Origin: Fidelibacterota bacterium | GTDB taxonomy: Bacteria; Fidelibacterota; SORT01 | DNA length: 64,000 bases | Assembly: GCA_022573815.1 (NCBI GenBank) | Contig: JACZTG010000001.1 | Coordinates: 859 to 64,858 of the forward strand | Direction: 5' to 3' | Part shown: positions 2,136-45,759 of the stretch, in pieces | How positions within the stretch are numbered: position 1 is the stretch's first letter | Layout of the letters: each line of letters starts with the position of its first letter | Made by a program: the position numbers and the translations under genes | The notes under the pieces: model-generated | Seen by the model: the letters and a program-made list of their open reading frames with translations, nothing else | What the model was told of the DNA's origin: nothing | Databases searched by the model: none

Positions 2136-3332
2136 ATGTCCGGCATAACAGTGGATTCGGTAATACCTAAGGTAAGCATGAGAAAGTTCGAAAGAACTGA
2201 AGCGCCGCCTACCGAAGATTATAGAGAAAAATTATTCGAGCTGGAAAAAGCGGGCGAAATCGAAGTGATAAGAGTTCCAGAGCCTTACGTGGAAGTCGAA
2301 ACAAAATACGGAAGATTGAAAAAAATCCCGTTGGACCATACCTGGCATCATAAATCATGCGGTCAATGCGGGCATATTCCCGGATATTCAACGGCAATTT
2401 TCTGGCTCAACAGACAATTCGGTTTTGATTATCACGACCCGAGAGACCAGACCTCATGTACTGCATGGAATTATTATGCTTCTGCCACATCAAATTCAGC
2501 CGCTCAGGCATCAGTGGCAGTTCGAAATTTCGCACAGGCAAAAATTGACGGATATTTTCCGATAATCCATTGTGGTACTAGCTACGGACACTATAAAGAA
2601 GTGCGTTCGGATCTGTTGGAATTTCCTGAATTGAGAGAAAAAGTTCGTAAGGTATTAGCCCGAATGGGAAAAACTTTGGTATTCCCGGAAGAGATTGTGC
2701 ATTATTCGGAATGGGTTCACGTGATGCGACATAAAATTGCAGATAGACAAGTTTTGGACTTCAGCAATTTGACGATTACCGTTCATCCGGCGTGCCATTA
2801 TCATAAACTCGTGGTGGAAGACGCTATTTACGATAAAGAGCTATATAATGGTCAGCGAACTGCTATTGTCAGCGGATTGGTTAAGGCGATGGGAGCGAAA
2901 CTCGCTGATTACTCTACGTGGCATGATTGTTGTGGCTTCGGTTTCCGCCATATACTGGTCAGCAGAGATTTTTCACGTTCATTTGCAACATTGAGAAAAA
3001 TCGAAGTAATGATTAAAGAGGCTAACCCGGATCTTACGCTCACTCATGATACGGGCTGCGTGACTACTCTTGATCAGAGTCAGTTTGCCGCCAAAGCCCA
3101 CAACAAAAAAGTCGGAATTCCCGTGATGTCTGATGCTCAATTTGCGGCATTGTCTATGGGAGCGCATCCATTCAAAGTGTGCCAATTACACTGGCATAAT
3201 ATGGAAATAAGAACAATACTCGAAAAAATGGGAATTGATTATGATAAGGCTTGGGCTGAATTTCAGCTACAAGTCGATCGGATCAAGTCCGGAGAAATTG
3301 ATTACCTAACCTGGGAGGATGCAGATGCCTGA
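2136..3332 (+). CDS. hdrB: Heterodisulfide reductase subunit B-like protein (sHdrB1), two CCG domains
   Basis: 398 aa. It has the Cys-rich CCG signatures HKSCGQCGH and WHDCCGFGFRH and overlaps the start of hdrA by 14 nt. Confidence 0.7.
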   Translation: MSGITVDSVIPKVSMRKFERTEAPPTEDYREKLFELEKAGEIEVIRVPEPYVEVETKYGRLKKIPLDHTWHHKSCGQCGHIPGYSTAIFWLNRQFGFDYHDPRDQTSCTAWNYYASATSNSAAQASVAVRNFAQAKIDGYFPIIHCGTSYGHYKEVRSDLLEFPELREKVRKVLARMGKTLVFPEEIVHYSEWVHVMRHKIADRQVLDFSNLTITVHPACHYHKLVVEDAIYDKELYNGQRTAIVSGLVKAMGAKLADYSTWHDCCGFGFRHILVSRDFSRSFATLRKIEVMIKEANPDLTLTHDTGCVTTLDQSQFAAKAHNKKVGIPVMSDAQFAALSMGAHPFKVCQLHWHNMEIRTILEKMGIDYDKAWAEFQLQVDRIKSGEIDYLTWEDADA

Positions 3333-4386
3333 TCTGCCTGTTTTAGTTATCGGGGGAGGTCCGTGCGGGTTGGAGGCGACCCGGGGAATATCAGACCTTG
3401 GATATAATGTCATACTTGTTGATAAAGCCGAGTTTTTAGGCGGAACGCCTATTTCGGCAGACTACGCTGCGCTGACGCCTGATATGAGAAGCGCGGAAGA
3501 CGCTATGAATGAGATGATCGATGCCATAAAAGATAATCCGTTAGTTGACCTTCGCCTGAATTCATCAGTGATCTCGACTGAGGGCGACGCACCTGATTTG
3601 AAAATCGGAATCAAAAATGGAAAGGGTGAAGAAGTGGTAGATGTAGGCAGTGTCATCGTTTCTACCGGCTTTCAGCATTTTGATCCGGGCAAAGAAACAC
3701 AGATGTACGGATATTATGAATACGACGATGTAATAACTCTTGTGGATGTGGAGCGTATGCTGAAGGCGGGTACTTTCGTCCGTCCTTCCACAGGAGAAAA
3801 ACCGAAACAGGTTTGCTTTATCCAATGTGTTGGAAGCAGGGATCGGCAAATAGGAAATCAGTGGTGTTCCAAAGTGTGCTGCGGAGTCGCAACAAAAGAA
3901 GCAATTGAAATCCGGGATATGGTGCCCGATTGCCGGGTATTCGTTTTTTATATCGACATGAGAATGTATGGATTTTGGGAGGACGAGCTCTACTGGAAAG
4001 CGCAGGAAGAAAAACAGGTGAATTTCATCAGAGGCATTGTCACAGAGATAACGATGCGCGGAGATACTCTTGTGGTCAAAGGTGAAGATACTACTATGGG
4101 CAGACCGATGGAGATACCAATGGATGTTGTAATTTTATCAATTGGTATGGAACCGAGTAAAGGCTCAAAAGATATGGCAAAAATCTTCAAATTACCTTTG
4201 GAACCACACGGTTTTATTGAAACGATCGGTGGAGCGCTGAACACGGTTCAAACTTCCGTTAAAGGAGTATTCGCAGCCGGCGCATCCACAGGACCGGCGG
4301 ATTTGGAAGACTCGATATCAATGGGCGGCGCCGCCGCAATGAAGGCGTGCGCATTCATCAGAAAATCACAATTAGAGACTGCCTAA
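3319..4386 (+). CDS. hdrA: HdrA-like FAD-dependent FeS flavoprotein (short sHdrA type without ferredoxin domains)
   Basis: 355 aa. It has an N-terminal VIGGGPCGLEA dinucleotide fold and the HdrA-specific cluster motif CVGSRD...CSKVCC. Confidence 0.7.
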   Translation: MQMPDLPVLVIGGGPCGLEATRGISDLGYNVILVDKAEFLGGTPISADYAALTPDMRSAEDAMNEMIDAIKDNPLVDLRLNSSVISTEGDAPDLKIGIKNGKGEEVVDVGSVIVSTGFQHFDPGKETQMYGYYEYDDVITLVDVERMLKAGTFVRPSTGEKPKQVCFIQCVGSRDRQIGNQWCSKVCCGVATKEAIEIRDMVPDCRVFVFYIDMRMYGFWEDELYWKAQEEKQVNFIRGIVTEITMRGDTLVVKGEDTTMGRPMEIPMDVVILSIGMEPSKGSKDMAKIFKLPLEPHGFIETIGGALNTVQTSVKGVFAAGASTGPADLEDSISMGGAAAMKACAFIRKSQLETA

Positions 4387-4390
4387 CCGA

Positions 4391-5149
4391 TTGCTTTACG
4401 ACTCAATCACATTTAAGGAAATAGTAGATGCGGATTCCGCTCAGGAATTTATGAAAGAAGCAACCAAGCTAGCCAAAACGTGGGAGCTGGAGGATATTGG
4501 GAGAAAGCTCGAGGCTAAAAGCGCGATAATTTCCGGGATTCTTGCAGAGGATAAGATTGATTCGTTAAATGAAGATGATCTAAAAAAGGTCATCGGAATG
4601 ATTTTTACGATTCGCCGTAAAACCAAAAGGATATTGAAAGCGAACGGTCTTGATAATATCAGATCATCAATAACTGATTTACTTTACGGTGAAAAGCGAT
4701 TAGAAGACCGTTTTGATGAATTCGTCAATTCAATAGAATCTGTAGAGATGAAAATGCGGCTCAACTTTGCCGGCGAGCTCCTGCACTATAGCAACCCCGA
4801 TAAATATTGGTTATGGACGAATTGGATTTGGGATCCTGATACTAAAACAGGTTCTCTGCCGTTAGTGATACAGGATTTTTCCAATCTATCGGGAACGTCA
4901 TTAGGGGATACATATTTGCGAGTTGGTAAAGCTACTCTAATGGTGAATGCAGTTGGACATAAGGTAAGTTTTTCGGATATGGCAAAAGGACTTTTCGGAA
5001 CAAATTTATTCTTAGCGTGTGTTTACGCTGTATATATGTACACGGTGTTTAAAGTGAAATTATCTCAAGAATTCAATAGGATTTTACCCGAGTTGGCGGA
5101 ACTGACACAAAGGGTATTGGGTGTTTACCAAATGGAGCTTAAGAACTAA
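4391..5149 (+). CDS. Conserved hypothetical protein occupying the 'hyp' position of shdrC1B1A-hyp-... loci
   Basis: 252 aa with no recognisable motif. The call rests on position only, as I recall the sHdr locus architecture. Its stop overlaps the next gene's ATG by 1 nt. Confidence 0.4.
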   Translation: MLYDSITFKEIVDADSAQEFMKEATKLAKTWELEDIGRKLEAKSAIISGILAEDKIDSLNEDDLKKVIGMIFTIRRKTKRILKANGLDNIRSSITDLLYGEKRLEDRFDEFVNSIESVEMKMRLNFAGELLHYSNPDKYWLWTNWIWDPDTKTGSLPLVIQDFSNLSGTSLGDTYLRVGKATLMVNAVGHKVSFSDMAKGLFGTNLFLACVYAVYMYTVFKVKLSQEFNRILPELAELTQRVLGVYQMELKN

Positions 5150-6444
5150 TGGGAGATCATAAATACGAAAAATTCGTCCAATTAGATAACGCTATTGTTG
5201 ACGGTGTGGACATTTCAGGTGAATGGAACAAGATGTACGAACCCAGGGAAATCATGGAATATGATTTAACTTATCTGGACAAGGTTATTAATACTCCCGG
5301 CGGTGAATCTATGGGTTGGTGCTATCAATGCGCCAAGTGCATAGGCGTTTGTCCCGTAGATAATGTGGGAAGCTACGGGCCGAGAAAGATATACCGGAAA
5401 CTCCAAACCGGTTATAATCTTTTTGAGGAAGCTGATCTTTGGCTCTGTACTTCCTGCAATAACTGTCTGCGTGTATGTCCAAAAGAAGTTGATATGATGA
5501 AGATAATGCCGGCAATTCGCGAGCAAGCTGTCCTTGACGGAAACGTTCCCGAAGAATTGCAGACTATGCTTCAAAACGTAGCCGAATACGGCAATCCGAT
5601 GGGCGAGTCGCCGCGGAAAAGAGTCAAGTGGACAAAAGATTTGGATGAGACTGTTCGCGATCTTACAAAAGAAGAAGATCCCGGCGCTGTTGATGTCCTC
5701 TGGTATGTAAGCGATTATTTCAGCTATCATAATCGCGGTAATGACGCAGCCAAGGCGATGGTTCGTGTATTCAACAAATTGAATATTGATTACGGTATTT
5801 TAGGAAAAGAGGAAAGGTGCGACGGCGATTCTCAGCGGTTAGTAGGAGAATCAGGTCTTTTTGAACAGCTCGCCGAGCATAACGACGGACTCTTTCAGAA
5901 ATTCGAGCATAACACGCTTGTGGTAAGCGACCCTCACGCCTTTAACGCTTTCAAAAACTTCTATCCAAAAGTCACGGGCAATGAGTACAATGTTCAGCAT
6001 TATACTCAATTCCTGTCGGGCAAGGTGGAAGAATTGAAGTCACTCTATACAACGGAATTCAAGAAAAAAGTCACCTTTCATGACCCGTGCTACTTAGGAA
6101 GACACAACGGAGAGTTTGAGGCTCCCCGCGATCTGATAAATTCAATTCCCGGTGTTGAGTTTGTCGAAATGTACAGGAATCGTCAGCAGGGGTATTGTTG
6201 CGGCGGCGGCGGCGGTGGAATGTGGTTAGATGGATTGGTCGCCGATCATACGACCGAACGTCTGTCGGAAAACAGGGTAAAGGAAGCTGTGGAAGTAGGA
6301 GCGGAGGTATTGGTTGTATGCTGTCCCTACGAAGTGTCCCGTTTTGAAGATGCGGTAAAATCAACCAACAATGACGAAAATCTTGAAGTGTGGGATATTA
6401 TTGAGATAATTGATTTCTGCATCTCCGGCGGAGCTGCAGCGTAA
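5149..6444 (+). CDS. Fused HdrC-HdrB-like protein (ferredoxin-type dicluster N-terminus plus CCG domain C-terminus; sHdrB3 / C2B2-fusion-like)
   Basis: CYQCAKCIGVCP and CTSCNNCLRVCP form the 2x[4Fe-4S] region. The C-terminus has HDPCYLGRHNGEFEAPRDL...GYCCGGGGGGMW, a CCG domain. Confidence 0.65.
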   Translation: MGDHKYEKFVQLDNAIVDGVDISGEWNKMYEPREIMEYDLTYLDKVINTPGGESMGWCYQCAKCIGVCPVDNVGSYGPRKIYRKLQTGYNLFEEADLWLCTSCNNCLRVCPKEVDMMKIMPAIREQAVLDGNVPEELQTMLQNVAEYGNPMGESPRKRVKWTKDLDETVRDLTKEEDPGAVDVLWYVSDYFSYHNRGNDAAKAMVRVFNKLNIDYGILGKEERCDGDSQRLVGESGLFEQLAEHNDGLFQKFEHNTLVVSDPHAFNAFKNFYPKVTGNEYNVQHYTQFLSGKVEELKSLYTTEFKKKVTFHDPCYLGRHNGEFEAPRDLINSIPGVEFVEMYRNRQQGYCCGGGGGGMWLDGLVADHTTERLSENRVKEAVEVGAEVLVVCCPYEVSRFEDAVKSTNNDENLEVWDIIEIIDFCISGGAAA

Positions 6445-6497
6445 GATTTTATTAAGCGTTGAAAGACAAAATAACAATTAAAGAGAACGGCTGACCT

Positions 6498-7004
6498 ATG
6501 GAAAATTCACTTGCTGTCAATTTAGCGGATGCATCCTGGCAACGGTTGCGTTCTATGGCATTGGCAACCGAACGGTATGAAAACTTTGTGGCGCTGGGTT
6601 CATCGAATATGTCAGATGATAAAAGTAACGGGAAATGGACACCGAATTTAAAGATAAACCCGCCTGAGGCTCTGGCGCTGGATTATCTGTCTATGACCAT
6701 AAGAGACGCGTTTGAAAGAGAAAATTCTGAGATAATGCTCCAACTTTCAGGAACCGAGCAAATCCAGCCTCTGGCTTTATCCGAGAAATTGGGAATGGCA
6801 GAACTTTCCTTGAGAGAAAGACTCGGAAATCTTTCTCAATGCGGATTAGTAATGAAAAATCTTGAGAGCGGGGGATATTTACTTACCGATGCGGGTGACG
6901 CTGTTGCGAACCTGATTCGAGATGCGGTGACCAATTTATCCCTGCGGATCGAGAAGGAACTCCCGGAACTCAATATAAAAAAAGAAGAACTCAAACATTG
7001 CTGA
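6498..7004 (+). CDS. Putative winged-helix transcriptional regulator (ArsR/MarR-like fold suspected)
   Basis: 168 aa. The segment IQPLALSEKLGMAELSLRERLGNLSQCGLVMKNLESGGYLLTD resembles an HTH followed by a wing. sHdr loci are known to carry ArsR-type repressors. This is a weak pattern-only call. Confidence 0.3.
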   Translation: MENSLAVNLADASWQRLRSMALATERYENFVALGSSNMSDDKSNGKWTPNLKINPPEALALDYLSMTIRDAFERENSEIMLQLSGTEQIQPLALSEKLGMAELSLRERLGNLSQCGLVMKNLESGGYLLTDAGDAVANLIRDAVTNLSLRIEKELPELNIKKEELKHC

Positions 7005-7241
7005 TTGGCGAGCGCATTGAATTGGGTGATTGTGGAATGGGGATGCCTGTCATCCGCGCATGGCAGGCGCTGAAGAAACAGCCCGTCGGGGGAATAGTCT
7101 GGTTGACGAGTTCACATCCGTGAGCGGAGCCCGATATCAACGCCTGGTGCAGGTCGTCCGGACAGAAGTTGCTGAAGATGGAAGAGGACGCTGAAGGAAA
7201 ACATTTTTACGTTCAAAGGATGAACTGATAAGGGAGAAATA

Positions 7242-7985
7242 TTGAAAATAGTTGTTCCAATGCAATTAGTGCCTGATTTAGTGGAAGACCTTGAAGTAGA
7301 TAACACAGGAAAGGCTTTAAATGAGGAAGATCTAAAATTAAAACTTAATGAATTTGACGATCACGCTCTCGAAGAAGCGATACAGCTGAAGGAATCGGAC
7401 GGCGCTGAAGTGGTGGCGATGACTCTTGACGGAGAAGGCGCAGACAAACTTCTTTTTACCGCTCTGGCAAAAGGCGCCGACAAATGTCTGAAGATAACGG
7501 GTGCCGCAGCATCTGATTCACATCAACGGGCAAAGGTTTTTGCCAATGCTATCAGTTCCGAAGGTTACGATCTTGTGCTTACGGGTGTTCAATCAGTGGA
7601 CGATAGAGACGGTCAGCTGGGTCCTATCTTGGCAACTTATCTCGATGTTCCAAGCGTGAGCGTTGTTTCTAATGTCTCGATATCCGGTAGCACGGTAACT
7701 CTCCGCAAGGAATATTCAGGCGGCTACATGGCTGAGTATGATGTTGAAACGCCTGCTGTGCTTGGAATACAAGCCGCGCGGCAAACGCCGCGATATGCTC
7801 CTGTGAGTAAGATAAAACAGATACAGGAAACTATGAGTATTGACAATACGGAGGCTGGAGATTCAGGGTCAGGAAGTGGAAGCGAAATCACGAAAATGGC
7901 GCCCCCTGCAAAGGGAGAAGGAGCAAAGATGCTTGATTCTGTTGACGAGCTGATTGAAGTGCTGAAAAATGCGGGCGCACTTTAG
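7242..7985 (+). CDS. etfB: Electron transfer flavoprotein beta subunit
   Basis: 247 aa. It has an EtfB-like N-terminus (MKIVVPMQLVPD...), the usual size, and is followed by etfA. Confidence 0.75.
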   Translation: MKIVVPMQLVPDLVEDLEVDNTGKALNEEDLKLKLNEFDDHALEEAIQLKESDGAEVVAMTLDGEGADKLLFTALAKGADKCLKITGAAASDSHQRAKVFANAISSEGYDLVLTGVQSVDDRDGQLGPILATYLDVPSVSVVSNVSISGSTVTLRKEYSGGYMAEYDVETPAVLGIQAARQTPRYAPVSKIKQIQETMSIDNTEAGDSGSGSGSEITKMAPPAKGEGAKMLDSVDELIEVLKNAGAL

Positions 7986-9051: not shown

Positions 9052-11097
9052 TTGTTAACGCAAACAGAACAGATAGCGTTTATACTTCTCACCGTTGTTA
9101 GCATAGCGTTTGCATGGCGTGGTTTCAGCCGATTATTCAAGATTGTCAAGAGTGGAGCTGATACCGACCGGAGCGACGGATTAAGCGTCAGATTCATAAA
9201 GGCTCTTTTTGAAGTTGGAATTCAGAAACCTGTCTTTAAAGCCCGTCGCTGGGTAAGCGTTTTTCACTCATTCATCTTTTTCGGGTTCAGCTTTTACCTC
9301 TTGGTGAACGTGAATGACATCTTGGAAGCGTATGTTGACGGGTGGCATCTTATCGGAGCCGGTACCTTAGCCGGAGTGTTCAATCTCTTTGCGGACATAT
9401 TCAGCATCTTCGTTATTGTCGGAATGAATTTTTTTCTTTATCGGCGATTTGTTACAAAACCGAAAGAACTTGGTTACAACGATAATGTTATGCTTCATCC
9501 CGGTGTAGATTCAGGGGGAATAAAACGGGATTCTCTGTTAGTGGGTGTGTTTATTCTGTTGCATGTGGGCTCAAGATGGCTCGGCACTGTTTTCCATATA
9601 GCGGAATTGGGGCATGGCGATCCGTGGCTTCCTATTGCCAATTTATTTGCGCCTCTCTTTTCATTTATGAGCCATGAGTCCCTTGAAATTGCGATTCATA
9701 TTACGTGGTGGCTTGCAATGGGTTTGATAGTAATTTTTATACCGTATTTCCCGAGGAGCAAACATCTTCATCTAATGGTTGCGCCTGTCAACTTAGCGTT
9801 AGGGCGAAAAACTCCCCCAGGGAGGATGGACGATGTACTGAATATATCTTCTCCGGGAGCTGCGTCTCTCACCGACCTTCCTTGGCCGCAGGTGCTGGAC
9901 GCTTATGCCTGTATAATGTGTAACAGATGTCAGGAAGTCTGTCCCGCTCACACGTCAGGAACTCCACTGAGTCCAGCGGCGTTGGAGATAAACAAGCGGT
10001 ATTTTATCAACGAAAAAGGCGATGAAGTTCTCAACGGCGCAGGCGCGCAAAGTCTGATCGATTATGCTATTTCAGATGAAGCCGTATGGGCCTGCACAAC
10101 CTGCTATGCGTGCGTTCAGGTCTGTCCGGTGGGAAACGAGCCTCTTATGGATATACTGGAATTACGTCGGAATATGGTTTTTGACGGTAGGATGCCGGAC
10201 GAGCTTGCCGATGTGCTTCGGAGCTTAGACGAGCAGGGCAATTCGTTCAGGGAATCTGCAAGAAGGCGAACGCGTTGGACGAAGGATTTAGATTTTGAAA
10301 TAAAAGACGCTAAATCGGAACCCGTGAAGTATTTATGGTATGTAGGCGATTTTGCGTCATACAACCAATCGTGCAGGGACGTGAGCAGAAAATTAGCGCG
10401 GATTCTCCATTCGGCGGGAGTGGATTTCGGAATTATTATGAAAGGCGAAAAATCTGCGGGCAACGATGTTCGCAGGGTTGGCGAAGAAGGATTATTCGAA
10501 GCATTGGCGGAAGAAAATATTGAAACTCTCGCTCAGTGCGATTACGAGGAGATTTTTACTACCGATCCTCATACATATAACGCGCTGCATAACGAATACG
10601 GAAAATTTGGCGCTGAATATAAGATTAAACACTACTCCACACTGTTGAATGAGCTGATTGAAAGCGGAATGATAGAAATTAAAAAGAAAATCGACGCAAA
10701 AGCCACTTATCACGATCCATGCTATCTCGGTCGTTATAACGGAAATTATGAAGCTCCGCGTGACTTGATGAAAAGTTGCGGGGTAGAGCTGGTAGAGATG
10801 CCTCGGAACAGAGAAAACTCTTTCTGCTGCGGCGCGGGAGGCGGAAGAATCTGGATGAAAGACCACGATGATATGACACAGCGTCCGAGTGAGAACAGAA
10901 TAGAGGAGGCGATGGCTCTCGGTGGGATCGAATATTTCACAGTTTCCTGTCCGAAGGACTTTACGATGTATTCCGATGCGGTGAAAACATCCGGCAACGA
11001 AGGGAAGATAGAAGTCAGGGATATTGTTGATTATCTGATGGAAGCAATGGATTTACATGAAGAATCTGCGGCGAAAGAACCTCTGATTACAGAATAG
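9052..11097 (+). CDS. Membrane-anchored HdrD/DsrK-like FeS/CCG oxidoreductase (candidate Etf:quinone oxidoreductase, Emo-like)
   Basis: 681 aa with a TTG start. The N-terminal ~250 aa form 5-6 hydrophobic helices. Then come CIMCNRCQEVCP and CTTCYACVQVCP (two [4Fe-4S] motifs) and a C-terminal CCG domain, YHDPCYLGRYNGNYEAPRDL...FCCGAGGG. Confidence 0.6.
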   Translation: MLTQTEQIAFILLTVVSIAFAWRGFSRLFKIVKSGADTDRSDGLSVRFIKALFEVGIQKPVFKARRWVSVFHSFIFFGFSFYLLVNVNDILEAYVDGWHLIGAGTLAGVFNLFADIFSIFVIVGMNFFLYRRFVTKPKELGYNDNVMLHPGVDSGGIKRDSLLVGVFILLHVGSRWLGTVFHIAELGHGDPWLPIANLFAPLFSFMSHESLEIAIHITWWLAMGLIVIFIPYFPRSKHLHLMVAPVNLALGRKTPPGRMDDVLNISSPGAASLTDLPWPQVLDAYACIMCNRCQEVCPAHTSGTPLSPAALEINKRYFINEKGDEVLNGAGAQSLIDYAISDEAVWACTTCYACVQVCPVGNEPLMDILELRRNMVFDGRMPDELADVLRSLDEQGNSFRESARRRTRWTKDLDFEIKDAKSEPVKYLWYVGDFASYNQSCRDVSRKLARILHSAGVDFGIIMKGEKSAGNDVRRVGEEGLFEALAEENIETLAQCDYEEIFTTDPHTYNALHNEYGKFGAEYKIKHYSTLLNELIESGMIEIKKKIDAKATYHDPCYLGRYNGNYEAPRDLMKSCGVELVEMPRNRENSFCCGAGGGRIWMKDHDDMTQRPSENRIEEAMALGGIEYFTVSCPKDFTMYSDAVKTSGNEGKIEVRDIVDYLMEAMDLHEESAAKEPLITE

Positions 11098-24264: not shown

Positions 24265-25131
24265 ATGAAAATCCTGCAAAGGTTATCGTTAGTGAGTATT
24301 CTTTTATTATTTGTTGTCTTAACAGCCTGTTCAGATGAATCCAAAAATGTTGCTACATCCGCAGATGGTGTACCCATAAGCTTTAGTGTATATGGTGAAG
24401 GGACACCGGCAATCGTTTTAATTCACGGCTGGTGCTGGGGTCAGAATAACTGGATTGGGCAAATCCGGGAATTGTCACGGCAGAATAAAATTATTACAAT
24501 TGATCTTGCGGGTTTCGGAGGATCCGGTCATGGTCGTACCGATTGGACTATGAAAGCTTTTGGAGAGGATGTGGTTTCGGTTGTTGAGAAACTCGGTCTC
24601 GAGCAGGTAGTGCTTGTAGGATTCTCAATGGGTGACAAAGTTATAGTCGAAGCTGCGCGGATTATGCCGGAACGTATTATTGGTTTGGTAGGGGTTGACA
24701 ATTTCCATAATGTGGAATCGAAACTTACAGATGAACAGATTGCTGGATTCATGGCCCCGTTTCGTGCTGATTTTGCCGGAGCTTTAAATGCAATGTTACT
24801 TTCCATGGTCCTCCCAAATGCTGATTCTACTAAGGTTCTGGAAAAAGTGAGAGCTGATTATGGTGGATGCGCCGCTCCACCTGATATTGCAATAGCTGTA
24901 CTGGAAAATTATATAAAACACGATATGACAGAGTCACTCAGGGAGATAAAAGCTCCTATTCACTGCATAAACTCTGATTTTGTTCCCACAGATATTGAAG
25001 CCGCTCAACGCTATGTTTCCTCCTTCAAGGTCGAAATAATGTCGGGAGTGGGTCATTTACTTCTCTGGGAAGATACTGCTACGTTTAATCGATTACTCGG
25101 TGAAATTGTTAAGACATTTGAAGCGTCTTAA
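24265..25131 (+). CDS. Alpha/beta-hydrolase-fold lipoprotein
   Basis: Lipobox LTAC. It has the VLIHGW oxyanion region and the GFSMGD nucleophile elbow (GxSxG). Confidence 0.55.
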   Translation: MKILQRLSLVSILLLFVVLTACSDESKNVATSADGVPISFSVYGEGTPAIVLIHGWCWGQNNWIGQIRELSRQNKIITIDLAGFGGSGHGRTDWTMKAFGEDVVSVVEKLGLEQVVLVGFSMGDKVIVEAARIMPERIIGLVGVDNFHNVESKLTDEQIAGFMAPFRADFAGALNAMLLSMVLPNADSTKVLEKVRADYGGCAAPPDIAIAVLENYIKHDMTESLREIKAPIHCINSDFVPTDIEAAQRYVSSFKVEIMSGVGHLLLWEDTATFNRLLGEIVKTFEAS

Positions 25132-25216
25132 TGCCGGCGCTTTACGGCTGATATGTATTCTATAACCTGTTGATCAGAATTCTATAGATATATAACAATT
25201 CTTATGAATATTTGGT

Positions 25217-25260
25217 GTGGCGAAAACGAACCGGCCAAAGCGTCACAAAACAATATCAAA
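25217..25260. repeat. Copy 1 of a ~45-bp intergenic stem-loop motif (GTGGCGAAAAnGArCCrrCCnAAAnnGTCACnAAACAnCAtCAAAc)
   Basis: Aligned by eye with three other copies. The GTGGCG and CGTCAC arms can pair around a ~20-nt A-rich loop. Confidence 0.6.
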
Positions 25261-25296
25261 TATCTCGGTAAAAATTTATCAGAAACAAAAATATAA

Positions 25297-25380
25297 AAGA
25301 GGGCAAGAATGATTTCCTTCCGCGTAGGAGGTTTCCAATGGGACTTGGCAAACCTTAGCGATCTTACCCTCTTTTAATTC
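25297..25380. terminator. Long-loop inverted repeat (aagagggcaaga ... tcttaccctctt) flanked by T-runs. It is the candidate terminator of the convergent 25419-25805 gene.
   Basis: Read directly from the sequence. Confidence 0.35.
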
Positions 25381-25418
25381 AGATTTCTTATAACAAGAAA
25401 ATCTTTACAAAATGTAAA

Positions 25419-25805
25419 TTACGGTAATGTGATCGTCGGTGTGCCCGAAACTCCCTGCTGAGTAATAGTGGCGACGATAATAACGCCTTCGTTAGAGCCT
25501 GTAGCTGTAAGGACGAACGATGTGGCCGTAACAGACGACATAAGGAAATTGCCGTTGGCGTTTGATGAATCAGCGCCAAAAGTTATTACATCGGTTGTTC
25601 CAACAAAGCTTCTCGCTCCACCGCCTAATGCCGCCGGTTTGCGCCAATAAGAAGCTGCTGACGATGCGACGTTATTCACATCCTGTAAAAGCGCGTCTCG
25701 CTCTGCGTTAACGGCGCCTGTCGTGAACATATTGATACCCACAACAACCGCAACACCAACGATAATGGTGCCGAGTACGATTAGTAGTAATTGCTGCTGT
25801 CCCAT
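25419..25805 (-). CDS. Small membrane-anchored or secreted hypothetical protein (N-terminal hydrophobic helix, Ser/Thr/Gly-rich body)
   Basis: 128 aa. MGQQQLLLIVLGTIIVGVAVVVGI is hydrophobic. There is no conserved pilin E5, so this is only weakly pilin-like. Confidence 0.3.
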   Translation of the reverse strand: MGQQQLLLIVLGTIIVGVAVVVGINMFTTGAVNAERDALLQDVNNVASSAASYWRKPAALGGGARSFVGTTDVITFGADSSNANGNFLMSSVTATSFVLTATGSNEGVIIVATITQQGVSGTPTITLP

Positions 25806-25896
25806 TAATCTATCTCCTTTTTCAGGTTAGATGTTCCATAATACTGCTTAACTATTCCTTTAATATATGATAGTTTTCAAGAACCAAAAAAGCAAG

Positions 25897-25940
25897 AAAA
25901 TTCAGTGTGGCGAAAAAGAGCCAACCTGAAAGTCACGAAA
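25897..25940. repeat. Copy 2 of the GTGGCGAAAA...GTCAC...AAACAA motif
   Basis: gtggcgaaaaagagccaacctgaaagtcacgaaacaacactaac. Confidence 0.6.
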
Positions 25941-25989
25941 CAACACTAACCTACAAATAGAAAAATCCCTAAAATTATTGGGTGGCGGT

Positions 25990-26105
25990 TAGGGCAAGTA
26001 AATCCCGCTTCAAGCGGCGGCCCTAACCCGCACAAAAAAGTGCTGAATTCGTAACTGAAATCAAGGATTTTGGTTCTATTACTTTTGTAGCGGGGGAATG
26101 TTGAA
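25990..26105. repeat. Direct-repeat block: 45-nt palindromic element copy B, a degenerate terminator region, and a degenerate duplicate of the tRNA-Met 3' end (ggttctattacttttgtagcgggggaatgttgaac)
   Basis: It matches 27798-27900 segment by segment. This is an att-like duplication of the tRNA 3' end. Confidence 0.6.
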
Positions 26106-26231
26106 CTACAATGATTCTTTTATATCAGTTGGAATTCCAAGCACACATTTAATTCTTCAAGTCATTTCTCGGCTTGATAGGCAAGCAATTTGTAGGTAAA
26201 TTTCACGTACCGATCATACAAGGAGCATAGT

Positions 26232-26435
26232 ATGTTAGTGCGTGATCTAATGAATCAACACCCCGACGGAGCTTGGGAGGCAAAGCAAATCATCGTTATT
26301 AACCATCCGAGCGGAGAGAAGATTACTCTGCGCCCCGGAATTAAAATGAATCCAGGATTTATGGCAATGGGATTTGATATAATTAAACTTCTTGATATTG
26401 AACTCGATGAAAAGGATTCTCAAAACCCAAAATAA
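26232..26435 (+). CDS. Small hypothetical protein (67 aa)
   Basis: An ORF with a plausible RBS (caaggagcatagtATG). No recognisable features. Confidence 0.2.
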   Translation: MLVRDLMNQHPDGAWEAKQIIVINHPSGEKITLRPGIKMNPGFMAMGFDIIKLLDIELDEKDSQNPK

Positions 26436-26494
26436 TTTAATGATATTTAAAGAAATAGCTACACTACTGTCAAGTCAGGATTTATATATTCGGA

Positions 26495-26540
26495 GTGGCG
26501 AAAATGAGCCGACCAAAACGTCACATAACAACATCAAACA
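26495..26540. repeat. Copy 3 of the GTGGCGAAAA...GTCAC...AAACAA motif
   Basis: gtggcgaaaatgagccgaccaaaacgtcacataacaacatcaaaca. Confidence 0.6.
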
Positions 26541-26726
26541 ACACTTAATTGCTTAATACAATAATTGGGATACCCACGGTTTTAAAGGGCTACTTTTTGC
26601 TCTATTATTGATTTTTGTCACATCTATTAGGTATAGCTGAAATATACTTGTGATAAAAATAGAATTAGAGTAGATTTAACGATACTCAATAACAATTAAT
26701 TAATAACTTCAAAGGGAAATGTCGAT

Positions 26727-27140
26727 ATGCGAAATATCATAATATTGAAATTCTCACTTTTACTTCTATTACTTGGAACGCTCGGTTGTGCGCACATGAA
26801 TTTTGATTCCGGGAACTCAGAATCAAGCATCTTGATGGGAAGAGGAGGTGAAAGTGTCGAATATACCCGAATGGGAGAATTCAACGTAGTTAAAGTGGGG
26901 GGATGGCTATTCTGGGGTATAACCAAAACAAGTCATCCGAATATTGGAGCGCTGATTGATAAAGAGGTATCAACATTGAGTGGTAATGGCGTCATAAACC
27001 TGGAGATTAAATCGACGAGAACATTTCTCGATGGATTTTTAGGAGTGATTACTCTCGGCATTTATACGAGAAGAACAGTACTGATTAGCGGCACTGTCGT
27101 GAAATTTACAAGTAGTGTGGGCTCTGTCCTTGGTGATTGA
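26727..27140 (+). CDS. Small lipoprotein (paralog 1)
   Basis: Lipobox LGTLGCAH. GNGVINLEIKSTRTF...RRTVLISGTVVKF parallels the next gene. Confidence 0.4.
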   Translation: MRNIIILKFSLLLLLLGTLGCAHMNFDSGNSESSILMGRGGESVEYTRMGEFNVVKVGGWLFWGITKTSHPNIGALIDKEVSTLSGNGVINLEIKSTRTFLDGFLGVITLGIYTRRTVLISGTVVKFTSSVGSVLGD

Positions 27141-27184
27141 TCGTTTGATATCCAATCAAAACTTCAATATGGAGATTTAATCTC

Positions 27185-27652
27185 ATGAAAGAGAAATCAT
27201 TTATCATTACTATAGCTTTGTCATTCGTATCATTCTTTTTTAGCTGTGAAAGTGTTATTTACGAAGCACATTCCTTGGAAAATTTCGTCTCCATGACAAC
27301 ACCGAAGGATATTGGTGAATATGAAGTGGTTGGAAAACTAAAATATGATACGAAAGCGGTCTTTCTCGTTCTGCAATTAATAACCATAAGAGACGCGGAA
27401 ATTGATAATGCTATTCAAAAACAGGTGGGGAAATACGAAGGTGATGGTGTAATAAACCTGAAGATTCATGAACAATATAAAATTGTTGATATCATAATTG
27501 CCGCTTTTGTAGGGGGATTGTTAAATACGAGAACTGTGGAAGTAAGAGGCGATATTATAAGGATAAATCCGGCATCCACAGTCGAGATACCTGAATTAAC
27601 TGACCAGATCGAACTTGCAATTCTTGATTATAACGAAGGTGTGGTTAGATAA
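27185..27652 (+). CDS. Small lipoprotein (paralog 2 of 26727-27140)
   Basis: Lipobox FFSCES. GDGVINLKIHEQYKI...TRTVEVRGDIIRI aligns with the previous protein. Confidence 0.4.
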   Translation: MKEKSFIITIALSFVSFFFSCESVIYEAHSLENFVSMTTPKDIGEYEVVGKLKYDTKAVFLVLQLITIRDAEIDNAIQKQVGKYEGDGVINLKIHEQYKIVDIIIAAFVGGLLNTRTVEVRGDIIRINPASTVEIPELTDQIELAILDYNEGVVR

Positions 27653-27692
27653 CCTCACTCAAATAATCAAATCTTTAATTAAAATATTCTAA

Positions 27693-27738
27693 TGTGGCGA
27701 AAATGAACCAGCCTAATAGTCACTAAACAGCATCAAAC
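27693..27738. repeat. Copy 4 of the GTGGCGAAAA...GTCAC...AAACAA motif
   Basis: gtggcgaaaatgaaccagcctaatagtcactaaacagcatcaaaca. Confidence 0.6.
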
Positions 27739-27797
27739 AATGGTAGGGTTCGTGGTGGTTGGGGCTTGCCCCGACACCAGTATTATTAGTTGAATGC

Positions 27798-27830
27798 GGT
27801 CAGGGCAAGCCCTAACCCGCACAAAAAAAT
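27798..27830. repeat. Diverged copy C of the palindromic element (cagggcaagccctaacccgcacaaaaaaa), immediately 3' of the tRNA-Met terminator
   Basis: It shares the GGGCAAG...CCCTAACCCGCACAAA ends with copies A and B. Confidence 0.5.
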
Positions 27831-27862
27831 CCCTGATTTCTTAAGTGAATTCAGGGATTGTG
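27823..27862 (-). terminator. Rho-independent terminator downstream of tRNA-Met (aatccctga-loop-tcagggatt + T7 on the minus strand)
   Basis: Read directly from the sequence. Confidence 0.55.
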
Positions 27863-27877
27863 GTACTATTACTTTCG

Positions 27878-27951
<74 letters not shown>

Positions 27952-28044: not shown

Positions 28045-28653
28045 TCAGTTGATGATAGCAGAGCCATGTGTAGCGTCTATGAGTTCTGATCTTAGGTTAT
28101 CCAGTTCGCTGTTTCTTACTGACAGCTGCACAAAAGCTTTGTCTCCCTTGTAGCCTTGACTGATCTCCGCCTTGAAAGCTGAAGCGGTCTTCAGCACAGC
28201 GCTCAGGAGGTTATAGTCCACTAATACCTCTAATTTTGCTCTGGCGATCTGTTCTACGATTTCCGCATTATTGATTAGTTCTTTTACGCAACCGCCGTAA
28301 GCTCTCGCCAATCCACCAACGCCTAATTTAGTACCTCCGTAATAGCGCGTCACCACGGCTAATATGTTAGTTAAGCCGGCGCCTTCCAATACGGCAAGCA
28401 TGGGAGCGCCCGCGGAACCCGACGGTTCTCCGTCATCGCTGGAAATTGCGCGAATATCATCGCCGATACCAATTCTGTATGCGTAGCAGTGATGTGTGGC
28501 ATCGCGCGATTTTTTCCGTATAAGATCGAGATTCGTTTTGACCTCATTTTCATCGTTGATGCGGGTCGCAAAGCCGATGAATTTTGAGCCTTTTTCTTTC
28601 AGGAGCGAATCAGAATCGCCTTTAATTGTGAGGAAGCTGTCTGCTTCGGGCAT
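28045..28653 (-). CDS. yigZ: IMPACT/YigZ-family protein
   Basis: 202 aa. The segment GEPSGSAGAPMLAVLEGAGLTNILAVVTRYYGGTKLGVGGLARAY is typical of UPF0029/IMPACT proteins. Confidence 0.65.
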   Translation of the reverse strand: MPEADSFLTIKGDSDSLLKEKGSKFIGFATRINDENEVKTNLDLIRKKSRDATHHCYAYRIGIGDDIRAISSDDGEPSGSAGAPMLAVLEGAGLTNILAVVTRYYGGTKLGVGGLARAYGGCVKELINNAEIVEQIARAKLEVLVDYNLLSAVLKTASAFKAEISQGYKGDKAFVQLSVRNSELDNLRSELIDATHGSAIIN

Positions 28654-44712: not shown

Positions 44713-45759
44713 TTGGCAGTAAGGTTGCGATTAAGAAGAACGGGAAAAAAGAAGCAGGTTCACTATCGTTTAGTGGCTGCGGATGCCAGATTTCCACGCG
44801 ATGGAAGATTTTTAGAAACTGTGGGACATTTCAATCCACGAATGAATCCACCTACAGCTGTGGTAAATGAAGAGAGAGTATTTTATTGGCTGGACAAAGG
44901 CGCGGAAATGTCAGAAGCATTCCGTGGTGTGCTGAAAAATAAGGGACTCCTTCTAAAATATGAATTGATAAAAAAGGATACTCCTGAAGCAAAAATAGAT
45001 GAAGAAATGCAAAAGTGGGCAATGTCCTATGAATTACGTCAGAAGAAGAAATCTGAAAAATTAACGAAAACCAAGAAGAAAAAAGCGAAAATGGAAGCGG
45101 AAGCCGCCGAGTCAGTAGATGAGAAAACTGCTGTAGCGGAAGAAACCGCAGAAGAAGTAAAAGCAGAAGAAACAGCTACCGAAGATGCTCCTGCTGAGAC
45201 AGAAGAAAAGGCTGAGACTGAAAAGTCTGCGGCGGAAGAACCCGCGGAAGAAGTAAAGGCAGAAGAAACAGCTGCCGAAGAAGCTCCTGCTGAGGCTGAG
45301 AAGCCTGCGGCTGAAGAGCCTGCGGCAGAAGAACCTGCAGCTGAAGAGAAGGCTGAAGAGCCTGCTACGGAAGAACCCGCTAAAGAGGTAAAAGCAGAAG
45401 AAACAGCTGCCGAAGAAGTTCCGGCTGAGACAGAAGAAAAGGCTGAGACTGAAAAGTCTGAGGCGGAAGAACCCGCGGAAGAAGTAAAGGCAGAAGAAAC
45501 AGCTGCCGAAGATGCTCCTGCTGAGACAGAAGAAAAGCCTGCGGCGGAAGAACCCGCTGAAGAAGTAAAAGCAGAAGAAACACCTGCCGAAGAAGCTCCC
45601 GTCGAAAAGAAAAAGGCGAAAAAGAAACCCGCTAAGAAAAATGCAGACGACAAACCAAAAAAGATAGCTGCCGAAAAAGAGAGCGCAGCAGATAAAAAAC
45701 CGGAAAAGAAGAAAAAAGCGCCGGCAAAACCAAAGAAAAGCGATGATAGTAAGGAATAA
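44713..45759 (+). CDS. rpsP: 30S ribosomal protein S16 with a ~260-aa C-terminal E/A/K-rich repeat extension
   Basis: The N-terminus MAVRLRLRRTGKKKQVHYRLVAADARFPRDGRFLETVGHFNP is canonical S16. The remainder is low-complexity repeats ending in a Lys-rich tail. Confidence 0.8.
   Translation: MAVRLRLRRTGKKKQVHYRLVAADARFPRDGRFLETVGHFNPRMNPPTAVVNEERVFYWLDKGAEMSEAFRGVLKNKGLLLKYELIKKDTPEAKIDEEMQKWAMSYELRQKKKSEKLTKTKKKKAKMEAEAAESVDEKTAVAEETAEEVKAEETATEDAPAETEEKAETEKSAAEEPAEEVKAEETAAEEAPAEAEKPAAEEPAAEEPAAEEKAEEPATEEPAKEVKAEETAAEEVPAETEEKAETEKSEAEEPAEEVKAEETAAEDAPAETEEKPAAEEPAEEVKAEETPAEEAPVEKKKAKKKPAKKNADDKPKKIAAEKESAADKKPEKKKKAPAKPKKSDDSKE
45100..45600 (+). repeat. In-frame imperfect tandem repeats (~93-nt units encoding AEEPAEEVKAEETAAEEAPAETEEKAETEKS) inside rpsP
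   Basis: Recurring gaagaaacagctgccgaagaagctcctgctgag blocks, about five units. Confidence 0.7.

Follow-up and report, generated by a model that had tools for sequence, protein, structure and literature searches.

A conserved DNA site of 45 bases, here called M, divides small gene cassettes that are stacked at a tRNA-Met gene and exchanged horizontally among deep-sea Marinimicrobia, as judged from sequence comparisons. Most likely, M is bound by the recombination machinery responsible for inserting these cassettes. More specifically, M may be the integrase-binding arm in the attachment region of miniature elements that target tRNA-Met in this clade, a reading to which we give roughly even weight. 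Marinimicrobia (SAR406) are abundant and uncultured, and their routes of gene exchange are little known. The M locus represents one concrete route: a tRNA-Met hotspot that stacks, reorders, and passes on single-gene units, with exchange spanning lineages that lie ~35% apart in core-gene DNA. Our literature searches returned no description of such a tRNA-Met/M array locus.

Four copies of M in a tRNA-Met islet

The stretch of DNA analyzed, hereafter the window, is 64 kb long and derives from a deep-sea Marinimicrobia relative. A degenerate pattern for M, allowing up to 3 mismatches, has exactly 4 matches in the window, all on the + strand, compared with 0 matches in 100 dinucleotide shuffles. 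The matches start at 25217, 25907, 26495, and 27694, and a profile HMM made from 40 distinct copies of M reports the same 4 sites and no others. The initial annotation had described four same-strand, intergenic copies, and all 4 are indeed both; its start for the second copy, 25897, was 10 nt too low. Identity averages 87% over the columns of M. The AAACAnCAtCAAAC tail of M is the beginning of a tandem 10-nt repeat, CAAACAACAY, which reaches up to 6 units beside M in other loci and whose period corresponds to one helical turn. In the window, this repeat falls below the tandem-repeat score threshold.

At the tRNA-distal end of the array, the conserved left flank is an alpha/beta-hydrolase lipoprotein gene (24265..25131, + strand) with an orthologue in locus L011. 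M copy 1 (25211..25264, core 25217-25261, + strand) lies between this gene and the first cassette; homology with L011 spans the hydrolase gene and M and ends after CATCAAA. The cassette gene, of family F6, specifies a 128-aa pilin-like protein (25419..25805, − strand) that is also found in L006 and L023. M copy 2 (25901..25954, core 25907-25951, + strand) is followed by a hairpin and by a decayed, displaced copy of the tRNA-Met terminator together with ~55 nt from the 3' part of the tRNA, extending through the anticodon arm (26034..26140). The similarity of this downstream block to the tRNA-proximal unit has a z-score of 32. The displaced copy directly adjoins the next cassette, a layout with a like in L017. 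That cassette carries a 67-aa ORF (26232..26435, + strand; family F1), present in 8 further loci with differing neighbors.

M copy 3 (26489..26543, core 26495-26539, + strand) forms the junction of the 67-aa cassette and a cassette encoding two paralogous lipoproteins, one of 137 aa with a Bor domain (26727..27140, + strand) and one of 155 aa (27185..27652, + strand). No significant tRNA or terminator similarity was found downstream of copy 3, making this a junction that lacks a tRNA fragment. M copy 4 (27689..27740, core 27694-27738, + strand) is the tRNA-proximal copy, and 137 nt separate its end from the tRNA-Met 3' end. Inserted between copy 4 and the terminator is a G+C-rich hairpin module, GGTTGGGGCTTGCCCC...GGGCAAGCCCTAACCCGCAC (27749..27825), that has a shorter relative at 25982-26033 and is seen only within arrays. 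The presumed terminator of the tRNA-Met gene, a hairpin with a T-run (27823..27858, read on the − strand), was recognized by reading the sequence and is absent from the terminator-scan list. It is repeated at 26034-26095 with 82% identity, and it is duplicated together with M as part of one unit. The tRNA-Met gene itself (anticodon CAT; 27877..27951, − strand) anchors the array. The conserved right flank is a YigZ/IMPACT-family gene (28045..28653, − strand), the orthologues of which were used to fetch syntenic loci.

Cassettes are shuffled and horizontally exchanged

M is not confined to the window. A profile search of related genomes and metagenomes revealed 57 copies at 18 independent loci. 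M orientation is uniform within every locus, the median spacing is 690 bp, and the position is nearly always just downstream of tRNA-Met(CAT). All loci long enough to reveal their flanks are the tRNA-Met/YigZ locus, and an intact tRNA-Met(CAT) beside YigZ anchors the arrays in the window and in L004, L023, L025, L028, L029, and L031. Thus, M does not follow the dispersed pattern of REP/BIME-type repeats: the 64-kb window has its 4 copies in one 2.5-kb islet, and elsewhere copies are clustered at the same locus and always co-oriented.

Intervals between M copies hold 1–2 small genes, encoding, for example, the 67-aa ORF, a DUF1059 protein, a glyoxalase, a pilin-like protein, or Bor-like lipoproteins; other cargo beside M includes a cyclopropane-fatty-acid synthase and a response regulator. 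The suggestion that M accompanies genes for secreted proteins and lipoproteins therefore describes the window, with its Bor-like lipoproteins and pilin-like protein, but not the loci elsewhere. The order of cassette families varies between strains, each family keeps a fixed orientation relative to M, and approximately half of the families face towards M and half away. Among 970 pairs of M copies taken from different loci, only the left flank is common to 16, only the right to 58, and both to 1. Between genomes, the DNA of the 67-aa cassette is 88–91% identical, compared with 63–64% for the adjacent YigZ gene. These comparisons demonstrate that the arrays are shuffled and that their cassettes move horizontally.

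M acts as DNA

The initial annotation proposed that M is a stem-loop, possibly a small RNA or RNA-stability element. On paper, the arms GTGGCG/CGTCAC are conserved and can pair, with pairing in 94% of cells. Single-sequence folds of M are nonetheless inconsistent among copies, with z-scores of −2.9 to +0.9 that are mostly near 0. Across 40 distinct copies, no pair of stem positions had changed on both sides, and every measure of covariation equaled that of shuffled controls. In an Rfam search, only the tRNA passes, and nothing overlaps M even at E ≤ 10. Because cargo faces either way along a fixed M orientation, and because there is no stem covariation, Rfam match, or consistent fold, M acts as DNA. 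As the initial annotation held, M is not terminator-like: the terminator scan found no G+C hairpin with a T-run there.

It is conceivable that M is transcribed as a stem-loop that stabilizes or processes cassette mRNAs, or that M is an operator for a regulator of secreted proteins. The conserved pairing arms would suit such a role, as would the finding that 3 of the 4 window copies come after a + strand gene. Given the absence of compensatory changes, folds that are mostly no better than those of shuffles, the lack of Rfam matches and terminator-like features, the mixed direction of the cargo, and its unrelated functions, we judge this explanation very unlikely. The idea of a dedicated regulator survives in part: a protein probably binds M, but the context favors recombination proteins over gene regulation.

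Two further candidates were discarded. A sigma-54, ECF, or Bacteroidetes-type promoter, assessed by eye, fits neither the spacing nor the variable positions, and M often has no same-strand gene after it. Nor is M a small peptide (MSQPKRHKTTSNN...): window copies 1 and 2 have no ATG, and substitutions do not follow a codon-like pattern.

A possible arm site for a lambda-like integrase

How could such a DNA site divide cassettes? We propose that very small integrative elements target the tRNA-Met(CAT) gene and that M is the protein-binding DNA module of their attachment region. An incoming element would bring 1–2 cargo genes plus its own block, composed of M, a short spacer or the 10-nt repeats, the terminator, and the tRNA-Met 3' part. 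Recombination between the element and the tRNA gene would be carried out by a lambda-type tyrosine integrase that has an N-terminal arm-binding domain, is usually encoded at another site, and acts with the help of an Xis-like protein. The tRNA would be left intact, and the earlier unit would move outward behind a displaced tRNA fragment. Since repeated integration would stack the units, each would have one M, in a constant direction. When both flanking M copies are good, the ~200 bp between them, including the tRNA fragment, could later be lost, so that one M remains to bound the cassettes; window copies 1 and 3 would be examples. Three parts of this scheme are inferences: the binding of M by the integrase, the placing of the crossover within the tRNA part, and the collapse of junctions through deletion of the DNA between M copies. 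Most junctions would require this collapse as an extra step, because ~2/3 of internal M copies are flanked by no tRNA fragment at all.

Fragments of the tRNA-Met 3' end, measuring 18, 24, 35, 37, and 48–51 nt, exist within arrays, at only ~1/3 of junctions, and several match the tRNA with 100% identity. A 236-aa cassette of L023 lies between the intact tRNA and a displaced block of M, repeats, terminator, and tRNA fragment. The tRNA-proximal arm of this integrated element has the right half of M only; thus, a full M is not strictly required there.

Arm-type sites could be expected on the far side of the tRNA fragments as well, and M-like sites do occur there in some cases. Specifically, L031 has an M-like site 17 nt beyond a 51-nt fragment, identical to M at 21/30 of the first 30 positions, and a perfect M 25 nt beyond a 37-nt fragment. 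In L017, an M-like site lies 46 nt beyond a 48-nt fragment, and weaker M-like sites lie beyond fragments in L023 and L019. In sum, 3–4 fragments have M-like sites 17–46 nt past them, one has a perfect M at 25 nt, and the other fragments have none. Decayed tRNA/terminator remnants seen by eye after window copies 1 and 3 and after the copy at L004:943 are not significant, and neither is the apparent mimicry of the tRNA-Met anticodon arm (ATGAGCCCAAC) by the M center (ATGAGCCAAC; p ~0.22).

A candidate enzyme comes from the L031 array, which carries a gene for a 348-aa tyrosine integrase and, adjacent to it, an HTH_17 (Xis-like) gene. An M copy lies 35 nt from the stop codon of the integrase gene, and C-terminal fragments of the same integrase family reside in arrays L001, L028, and L029. 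The adjacency of integrase and M comprises this one intact case and the three fragments. In an AlphaFold model (pLDDT 86), strands at residues 3–6, 13–19, and 22–27 and a helix at 33–48 precede a SAM-like domain, such that the predicted protein has an N-terminal three-strand-plus-helix domain followed by core-binding and catalytic domains. The best structural match is lambda integrase crystallized with its arm-binding domain (1Z1B, 1Z1G), which gives the longest alignments (359–376 columns) at 17–19% sequence identity. As modeled, the L031 protein is a tyrosine integrase of three domains with a lambda-like architecture, in which the N-terminal arm-binding domain is separate. The earlier suggestion that M is a recombination site organizing the islet thus gains support, as M bounds shuffled, exchanged cassettes at tRNA-Met and the arrays hold integrase genes and fragments.

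Besides the many fragment-free junctions, the half M of the L023 element, and the single intact case of integrase adjacency, three features sit less comfortably with an arm site. M consists of 45 nt of unbroken conservation, which exceeds one arm-type site; the ~130–250 nt that separate it from the presumed tRNA crossover are a rather long distance; and the 64-kb window encodes no recombinase.

A recognition protein for M could also be dispensed with altogether. M could be a conserved sequence downstream of tRNA-Met that is copied with segmental duplications, with cassettes gained, lost, and reordered by RecA-dependent recombination between the 45–55-bp repeats and conserved flanks following uptake of foreign DNA. 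M is always within the tRNA-proximal block, its polymorphisms are not cleanly tied to either neighbor, as would be the case were exchange points spread over M, and some copies decay (the copy at ~11480 in L028 is degenerate; its counterpart at position 430 in L004 is intact). This scheme leaves unexplained how unrelated genes each acquired M at an equal distance and in the same orientation, why the tRNA fragments have discrete lengths (18, 35, and 48–51 nt), and why integrase genes, Xis genes, and integrase fragments are present in the arrays. Moreover, M is 82–93% identical between genomes whose orthologous genes are 63–73% identical. We consider passive homology improbable.

Does crossover occur in M?

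Another possibility is that M itself holds the crossover point, making it an analog of the integron attC site. Single cassettes of cargo plus M would leave as circles through recombination between a pair of M copies, a dedicated tyrosine recombinase would insert them again at a further M, and the tRNA fragments would stem from separate tRNA-targeted events at the hotspot. The junctions provide the impetus for this proposal. Most consist of M alone, and the homology of neighbors stops exactly at the M edges (approximately −5 on the left and +40 to +50 on the right). The left junction of the 67-aa cassette, CATCAAACAA|YACAATTC, is identical behind five different upstream neighbors. Positions 40–45 of M travel with the right-hand neighbor, and the right edge abuts a wide range of unrelated sequences, one of which, in L002, is the 3' end of a small recombinase gene. 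In cassette size, one-gene content, cargo types, and the absence of a nearby integrase, the arrays also resemble integron arrays and CALINs.

Features of the site and of the enzymes argue in the other direction. M has no extended imperfect palindrome and no consistent fold, and neither its consensus nor the reverse complement contains the attC box pair RYYYAAC (R'')/GTTRRRY (R'). Against the integron integrase model TIGR02249, with its cutoff of 265, the two recombinases encoded near M at other loci reach 37 and 100 bits, and so neither is an integron integrase. An attempt to locate the crossover by polymorphism linkage revealed no single point within M: clear linkage, to the right-hand neighbor, is limited to the last 5–6 nt, and the interior is uninformative. 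The M-like sites on both sides of some tRNA fragments and the lambda-like integrase fit an arm-site role better. We regard crossover in an attC-like M as possible, albeit on the doubtful side. A more explicit version has M as the crossover site of an integron-like but unrelated system, sequence-defined and non-palindromic, with recognition on one side of the exchange point and the array seeded at tRNA-Met; this version we hold to be unlikely. If junctions free of tRNA fragments do arise by recombination at M, the arrays might work in the manner of an integron with a site and an enzyme unrelated to those of integrons, which would bear on the evolution of cassette capture. An uncultured marine phylum would then have arrived at the “integrase plus cassette array” strategy a second time and independently.

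Other recombination candidates fared poorly. The ~200-aa tyrosine recombinase whose gene abuts M in L002 was rejected as the array enzyme, as this adjacency is the only one and 5 other loci bearing the gene have no adjacent M. One of the loci with this recombinase gene, L019, has a sole M copy that is degenerate and ~7 kb away. M bears an apparent similarity to the TGTGGGCG... terminus of Tn7; a transposon end was nevertheless rejected, as the 176 kb of sequence with arrays contain no stretch of M in inverted orientation. An IS200/IS605-type hairpin end was likewise dismissed: the 5–6-bp stem and 18-nt conserved loop of M are unlike those ends, and no such transposase was seen. Neither M nor relatives of the integrase appear in IMG/VR, and a phage origin of M was set aside.

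Relation to known systems

Xer-dependent modules, such as IMEX at dif and the pdif modules of Acinetobacter plasmids, are small and integrase-less, have short conserved sites as boundaries, rely on a recombinase encoded elsewhere, and can build up in tandem. M arrays share with them the small integrase-less modules between short conserved sites and the tandem accumulation. The dif site has an 11-6-11 inverted-arm layout, and pdif sites alternate in orientation. In contrast, M never alternates in orientation. By eye, M also has no such inverted arms, and the islet is not at a GC-skew switch; a dif/Xer site was rejected on these two grounds.

Analogous to the proposed arm-site arrangement, lambda-type heterobivalent integrases have the three-domain layout predicted for the L031 integrase, which aligns to lambda integrase over its full length. 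The likeness extends to an HTH_17 Xis-like gene beside the integrase gene and to phased 10-nt repeats, and it may extend to direct sites on both sides of the presumed core, as seen at some tRNA fragments. The M system differs from lambda in its low integrase identity (the 17–19% above) and in its 45-nt M block up to ~200 nt from the core.

Tycheposon-type islands in marine Prochlorococcus are tRNA-adjacent, with one of the three tRNA-Met(CAT) genes among the targets; each further site-specific integration displaces the older elements outward, partial tRNA copies lie between elements, and scattered integrase fragments or remnants accompany adaptive cargo (Hackl et al., bioRxiv 10.1101/2020.12.28.424599). 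M arrays and tycheposons have in common an intact tRNA anchor at a conserved position, partial tRNA 3' copies, and integrase elements or remnants (L031; L001, L028, L029). By contrast, most M-array units are 0.35–2.5 kb long, with 1–2 genes and no integrase; the boundary that recurs between them is 45 bp long and lies outside the tRNA, the tRNA fragment has disappeared from most junctions, and the host phylum is Marinimicrobia.

CALINs are clusters of attC sites that lack an integrase (Cury et al. 2016, PMC4889954). Both CALINs or integron arrays and M arrays consist of small cassettes, most of them with a single gene, and every cassette ends in a co-oriented, recombination-associated site; the order is shuffled between strains, there is often no integrase nearby, and the cargo is of unknown or accessory function and includes a glyoxalase/bleomycin-resistance-fold protein. 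At attC, structure is kept (imperfect palindromes, R and L boxes, extrahelical bases) and sequence varies, whereas at M it is the sequence that is conserved, and these structural features are absent. Unlike integrons, M arrays lack IntI, are anchored at a tRNA gene, hold tRNA fragments, and have cargo in mixed orientation.

M in metagenomes

M arrays may explain apparent breaks in assemblies: most metagenome matches are on contigs of 1–3 kb, a length that is nonetheless near the typical size in the collection. Finally, the 45-bp site offers a sequence tag with which the mobile gene pool of this clade can be harvested from metagenomes, as attC does for integron cassettes.

Distribution of the Motif

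A degenerate pattern (up to three mismatches) places four copies of a conserved ~45-bp motif, here called M, on the forward strand of the window, at 25217, 25907, 26495, and 27694, and finds no match in 100 shuffles of the window. A repeat finder groups the same four sites into one 53-nt family, and a profile constructed from 40 distinct copies again recovers just these four in 64 kb. All four reside in intergenic DNA. Pattern scan, repeat finder, and profile thus confirm the initial annotation's report of four same-strand intergenic copies, with one correction: the position it assigned to the second copy, 25897, is 10 nt too low. The M consensus is GTGGCGAAAATGAGCCAACCTAAACGTCACAAAACAACATCAAAC. 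Information content is high from 3 nt ahead of the first G to approximately position 40, and then drops steeply.

When one genome per species was scanned with an exact pattern, M appeared in only three, all of them single-cell genomes of Candidatus Marinimicrobia from the Mariana Trench, apart from a chance match in Streptomyces. Metagenomes supplied eight more short contigs, and the viral collection that we scanned contained no M. Retrieval of the syntenic locus via orthologs of the neighboring YigZ gene (28045-28653, reverse strand) added the long scaffolds L023, L025, L028, L029, and L031, together with L026, which represents a near-identical strain. In total, a profile HMM identifies 57 copies at 18 independent loci. 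Copies are co-oriented inside each locus, and their spacing is 353-2464 bp (median 690 bp).

Cassette Arrays beside tRNA-Met

Every long locus, like the window, has an array that begins immediately downstream of tRNA-Met(CAT) (27877-27951, reverse strand, in the window), itself beside YigZ. Outward from the tRNA, the first unit consists of a terminator hairpin, a spacer, M, and cargo. The spacer varies between loci: it is a run of 2-6 tandem 10-nt CAAACAACAY repeats, a 95-nt block, or, in the window, a G+C-rich hairpin. Each interval between successive M copies houses one or two small genes. The window cargo comprises a pilin-like protein, a 67-aa ORF, and two Bor-type lipoproteins; elsewhere, cargo includes DUF1059, a glyoxalase, a cyclopropane-fatty-acid synthase, a HEAT-repeat protein, an RRM protein, a response regulator, and small membrane proteins.

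A hairpin with a 15-bp stem and T-runs on both strands (25294-25376), situated after M copy 1 and before the pilin-like gene ends, looks, from its sequence, like a bidirectional terminator of that cassette. The G+C-rich hairpin module (GGTTGGGGCTTGCCCC ... GGGCAAGCCCTAACCCGCAC) occurs at 25982-26033 and 27749-27825 and also in L023, L025, L028, and L029. It is seen only within cassette arrays, beside M copies, and could itself represent a small insert, either mobile or structural.

M had been proposed to form a stem-loop RNA with arms GTGGCG and CGTCAC. Across the 40 distinct copies, these arms pair in 94% of cells, but no pair is altered on both sides, and all covariation measures equal those of column shuffles. 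Folds of eight strands from the four window copies vary between copies and are mostly no better than shuffles, and Rfam reports tRNA alone at gathering score and nothing over M even at E ≤ 10. The stem-loop proposal is therefore not supported; the arms just share the conservation of the 18 nt between them. A promoter and terminator scan shows nothing at M, in agreement with the original remark that it is not terminator-like. The most telling point against an RNA, promoter, or terminator role is that the orientation of M is constant whereas adjoining genes point either way. We consider an RNA or regulatory role highly improbable.

Evidence for Cassette Movement

Clustering of the array ORFs yields 11 families that recur in differing orders (the 67-aa and 100-aa genes, for instance, occur in both), with each family always oriented the same way with respect to M. 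Of the 970 inter-locus pairs of M copies, 16 have homology in the left flank alone, 58 in the right flank alone, and 1 on both sides. When the same cassette is aligned across contexts, homology extends to M and ends at the M edges. At the DNA level, the 67-aa cassette reaches 88-91% identity between genomes in which the neighboring YigZ genes share 63-64%, a disparity that points to horizontal movement. M in the window shows 82-93% identity to M in genomes with orthologous genes that share 67-73%. M is dispensable to the host: one copy has decayed in L028, and its counterpart in L004 is intact.

M-bounded cassettes are also found outside the tRNA-Met locus. In L005, an IS3-type transposase with an rve domain (1-876) lies directly left of the M copy preceding the 67-aa cassette. 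In L001 (MT.SAG.3), the stretch 2490-7325 includes a block of a 234-aa ORF, M, repeats, a terminator, and an 18-nt tRNA-Met fragment, set within an island beside tRNA-Ser that also carries a DUF932 gene, an integrase fragment, and a serine recombinase.

tRNA Fragments and a Candidate Integrase

After approximately one-third of M copies, a second terminator copy and a 3'-end fragment of tRNA-Met appear within 60-260 nt; window copy 2 is one such case, with these remnants at 26034-26140. The fragments come in discrete lengths (18, 24, 35, 37, and 48-51 nt), several of them matching the tRNA at 100% identity. This arrangement is the classic footprint left when elements integrate serially into a tRNA gene. 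Tycheposon islands display the same footprint, and they, too, use a tRNA-Met(CAT) gene (bioRxiv 10.1101/2020.12.28.424599). In L023, a 236-aa cassette sits exactly between the intact tRNA and a displaced block of terminator copy and tRNA fragment. At all other junctions, window copies 1 and 3 among them, cargo directly follows M and no tRNA remnant is detectable.

M-like sites also occur on the far side of several tRNA fragments. In L031, one lies 17 nt past a 51-nt fragment and matches M at 21 of the first 30 positions, and a perfect M lies 25 nt past a 37-nt fragment. An M-like site lies 46 nt past a 48-nt fragment in L017, and weaker ones are present in L023 and L019. Separately, in some copies of the tRNA-Met 3' part, a hairpin-rich stretch of 25-70 nt (CCCGCTAAGAGCGGG, CCCGCCAAAGGCGGGG, GGAACTCCTTTGGAGGAACC) divides the T-loop: L023 12120-12180, L001 4700-4790, the L028 and L029 arrays, and L025 ~10780-10890. 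The L025 copy is nearly complete and lies 5 nt from the intact tRNA-Met.

Pfam searches of all window ORFs of at least 150 aa and tblastn with five tyrosine- and one serine-recombinase queries found no recombinase. The L031 array (MT.SAG.4) encodes a 348-aa tyrosine integrase, with 35 nt between its stop codon and an M copy. Past it are a small ORF (69-103 aa, by gene call) and an HTH_17 (Xis-like) gene. C-terminal fragments of this family occur in arrays L001, L028, and L029, and it has at least 387 relatives; of the few with a taxon name, most are Marinimicrobia. In the AlphaFold model (pLDDT 86), an N-terminal three-strand-plus-helix domain precedes the core-binding and catalytic domains, and lambda integrase crystallized with its arm-binding domain is the best structural match and gives the longest alignments. 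Lambda-type integrases possessing this domain bind arm-type sites that lie some way from the crossover, and the M-like sites beyond several tRNA fragments are in keeping with such binding.

A second tyrosine recombinase family, of ~200 aa, consists of the catalytic domain only (L018 9641-10249 and 759-1364; L020 1901-2629; L019 309-557; L021 944-1192; L022 114-362; L002 1-205). In many copies, either only an 82-aa C-terminal fragment is present or in-frame stop codons, differing in position, interrupt the gene, and most database relatives are just 49-123 aa, many of them 78-82 aa. Some fragments (L019, L021) adjoin tRNA-like sequences without an ARAGORN call, and that in L002 directly adjoins an M copy.

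Models for M

On the best-supported reading, M serves as the conserved arm, bound by protein, in the attachment region of miniature elements that target tRNA-Met. Our confidence in this reading is evenly balanced, since we infer both the binding and the collapse step described here. Most such elements would lack an integrase and be mobilized in trans, and serial integration would stack them. Wherever a displaced tRNA fragment lies between M copies, later loss of the short interval would leave a lone M. Loss between good M copies would also explain why, at junctions that retain a tRNA fragment, the second M tends to be degenerate or missing.

The main rival holds that M itself is the exchange site of an integron-like system with an unrelated site and enzyme. 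The M-cargo junctions are precise, and the right edge of M is joined to varied sequences, including the 3' end of the small recombinase gene in L002; both features favor this rival. Against it stand the lack of any attC-like structure in M and the evidence for an arm site, namely the M-like sites past several tRNA fragments and the lambda-like integrase architecture. We rate an exchange site as less likely than an arm site. The locus resembles an integron cassette array in appearance and functions like a tycheposon-type tRNA island; it fails the defining attC and IntI tests, and the L031 integrase is not an integron integrase. Passive homology is a doubtful explanation and, like an RNA or regulatory role, less likely than either the arm-site or the exchange-site reading. 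Of the options initially raised for M, only the last, a recombination site, is supported. Our literature searches found no account of this locus.

Other Features of the Window

A long same-strand cluster at 1474-22394 is devoted to core metabolism and is unrelated to M. It encodes Hdr-like CCG/4Fe-4S proteins, ETF alpha and beta, an NrfD/4Fe-4S fusion, and a 952-aa molybdopterin oxidoreductase, as well as two LplA-like ligases and two radical-SAM enzymes that resemble a lipoate-assembly set. Finally, a 348-aa ORF at 44713-45759 has a ribosomal protein S16 domain in its first 67 residues only; the rest is a long C-terminal extension.
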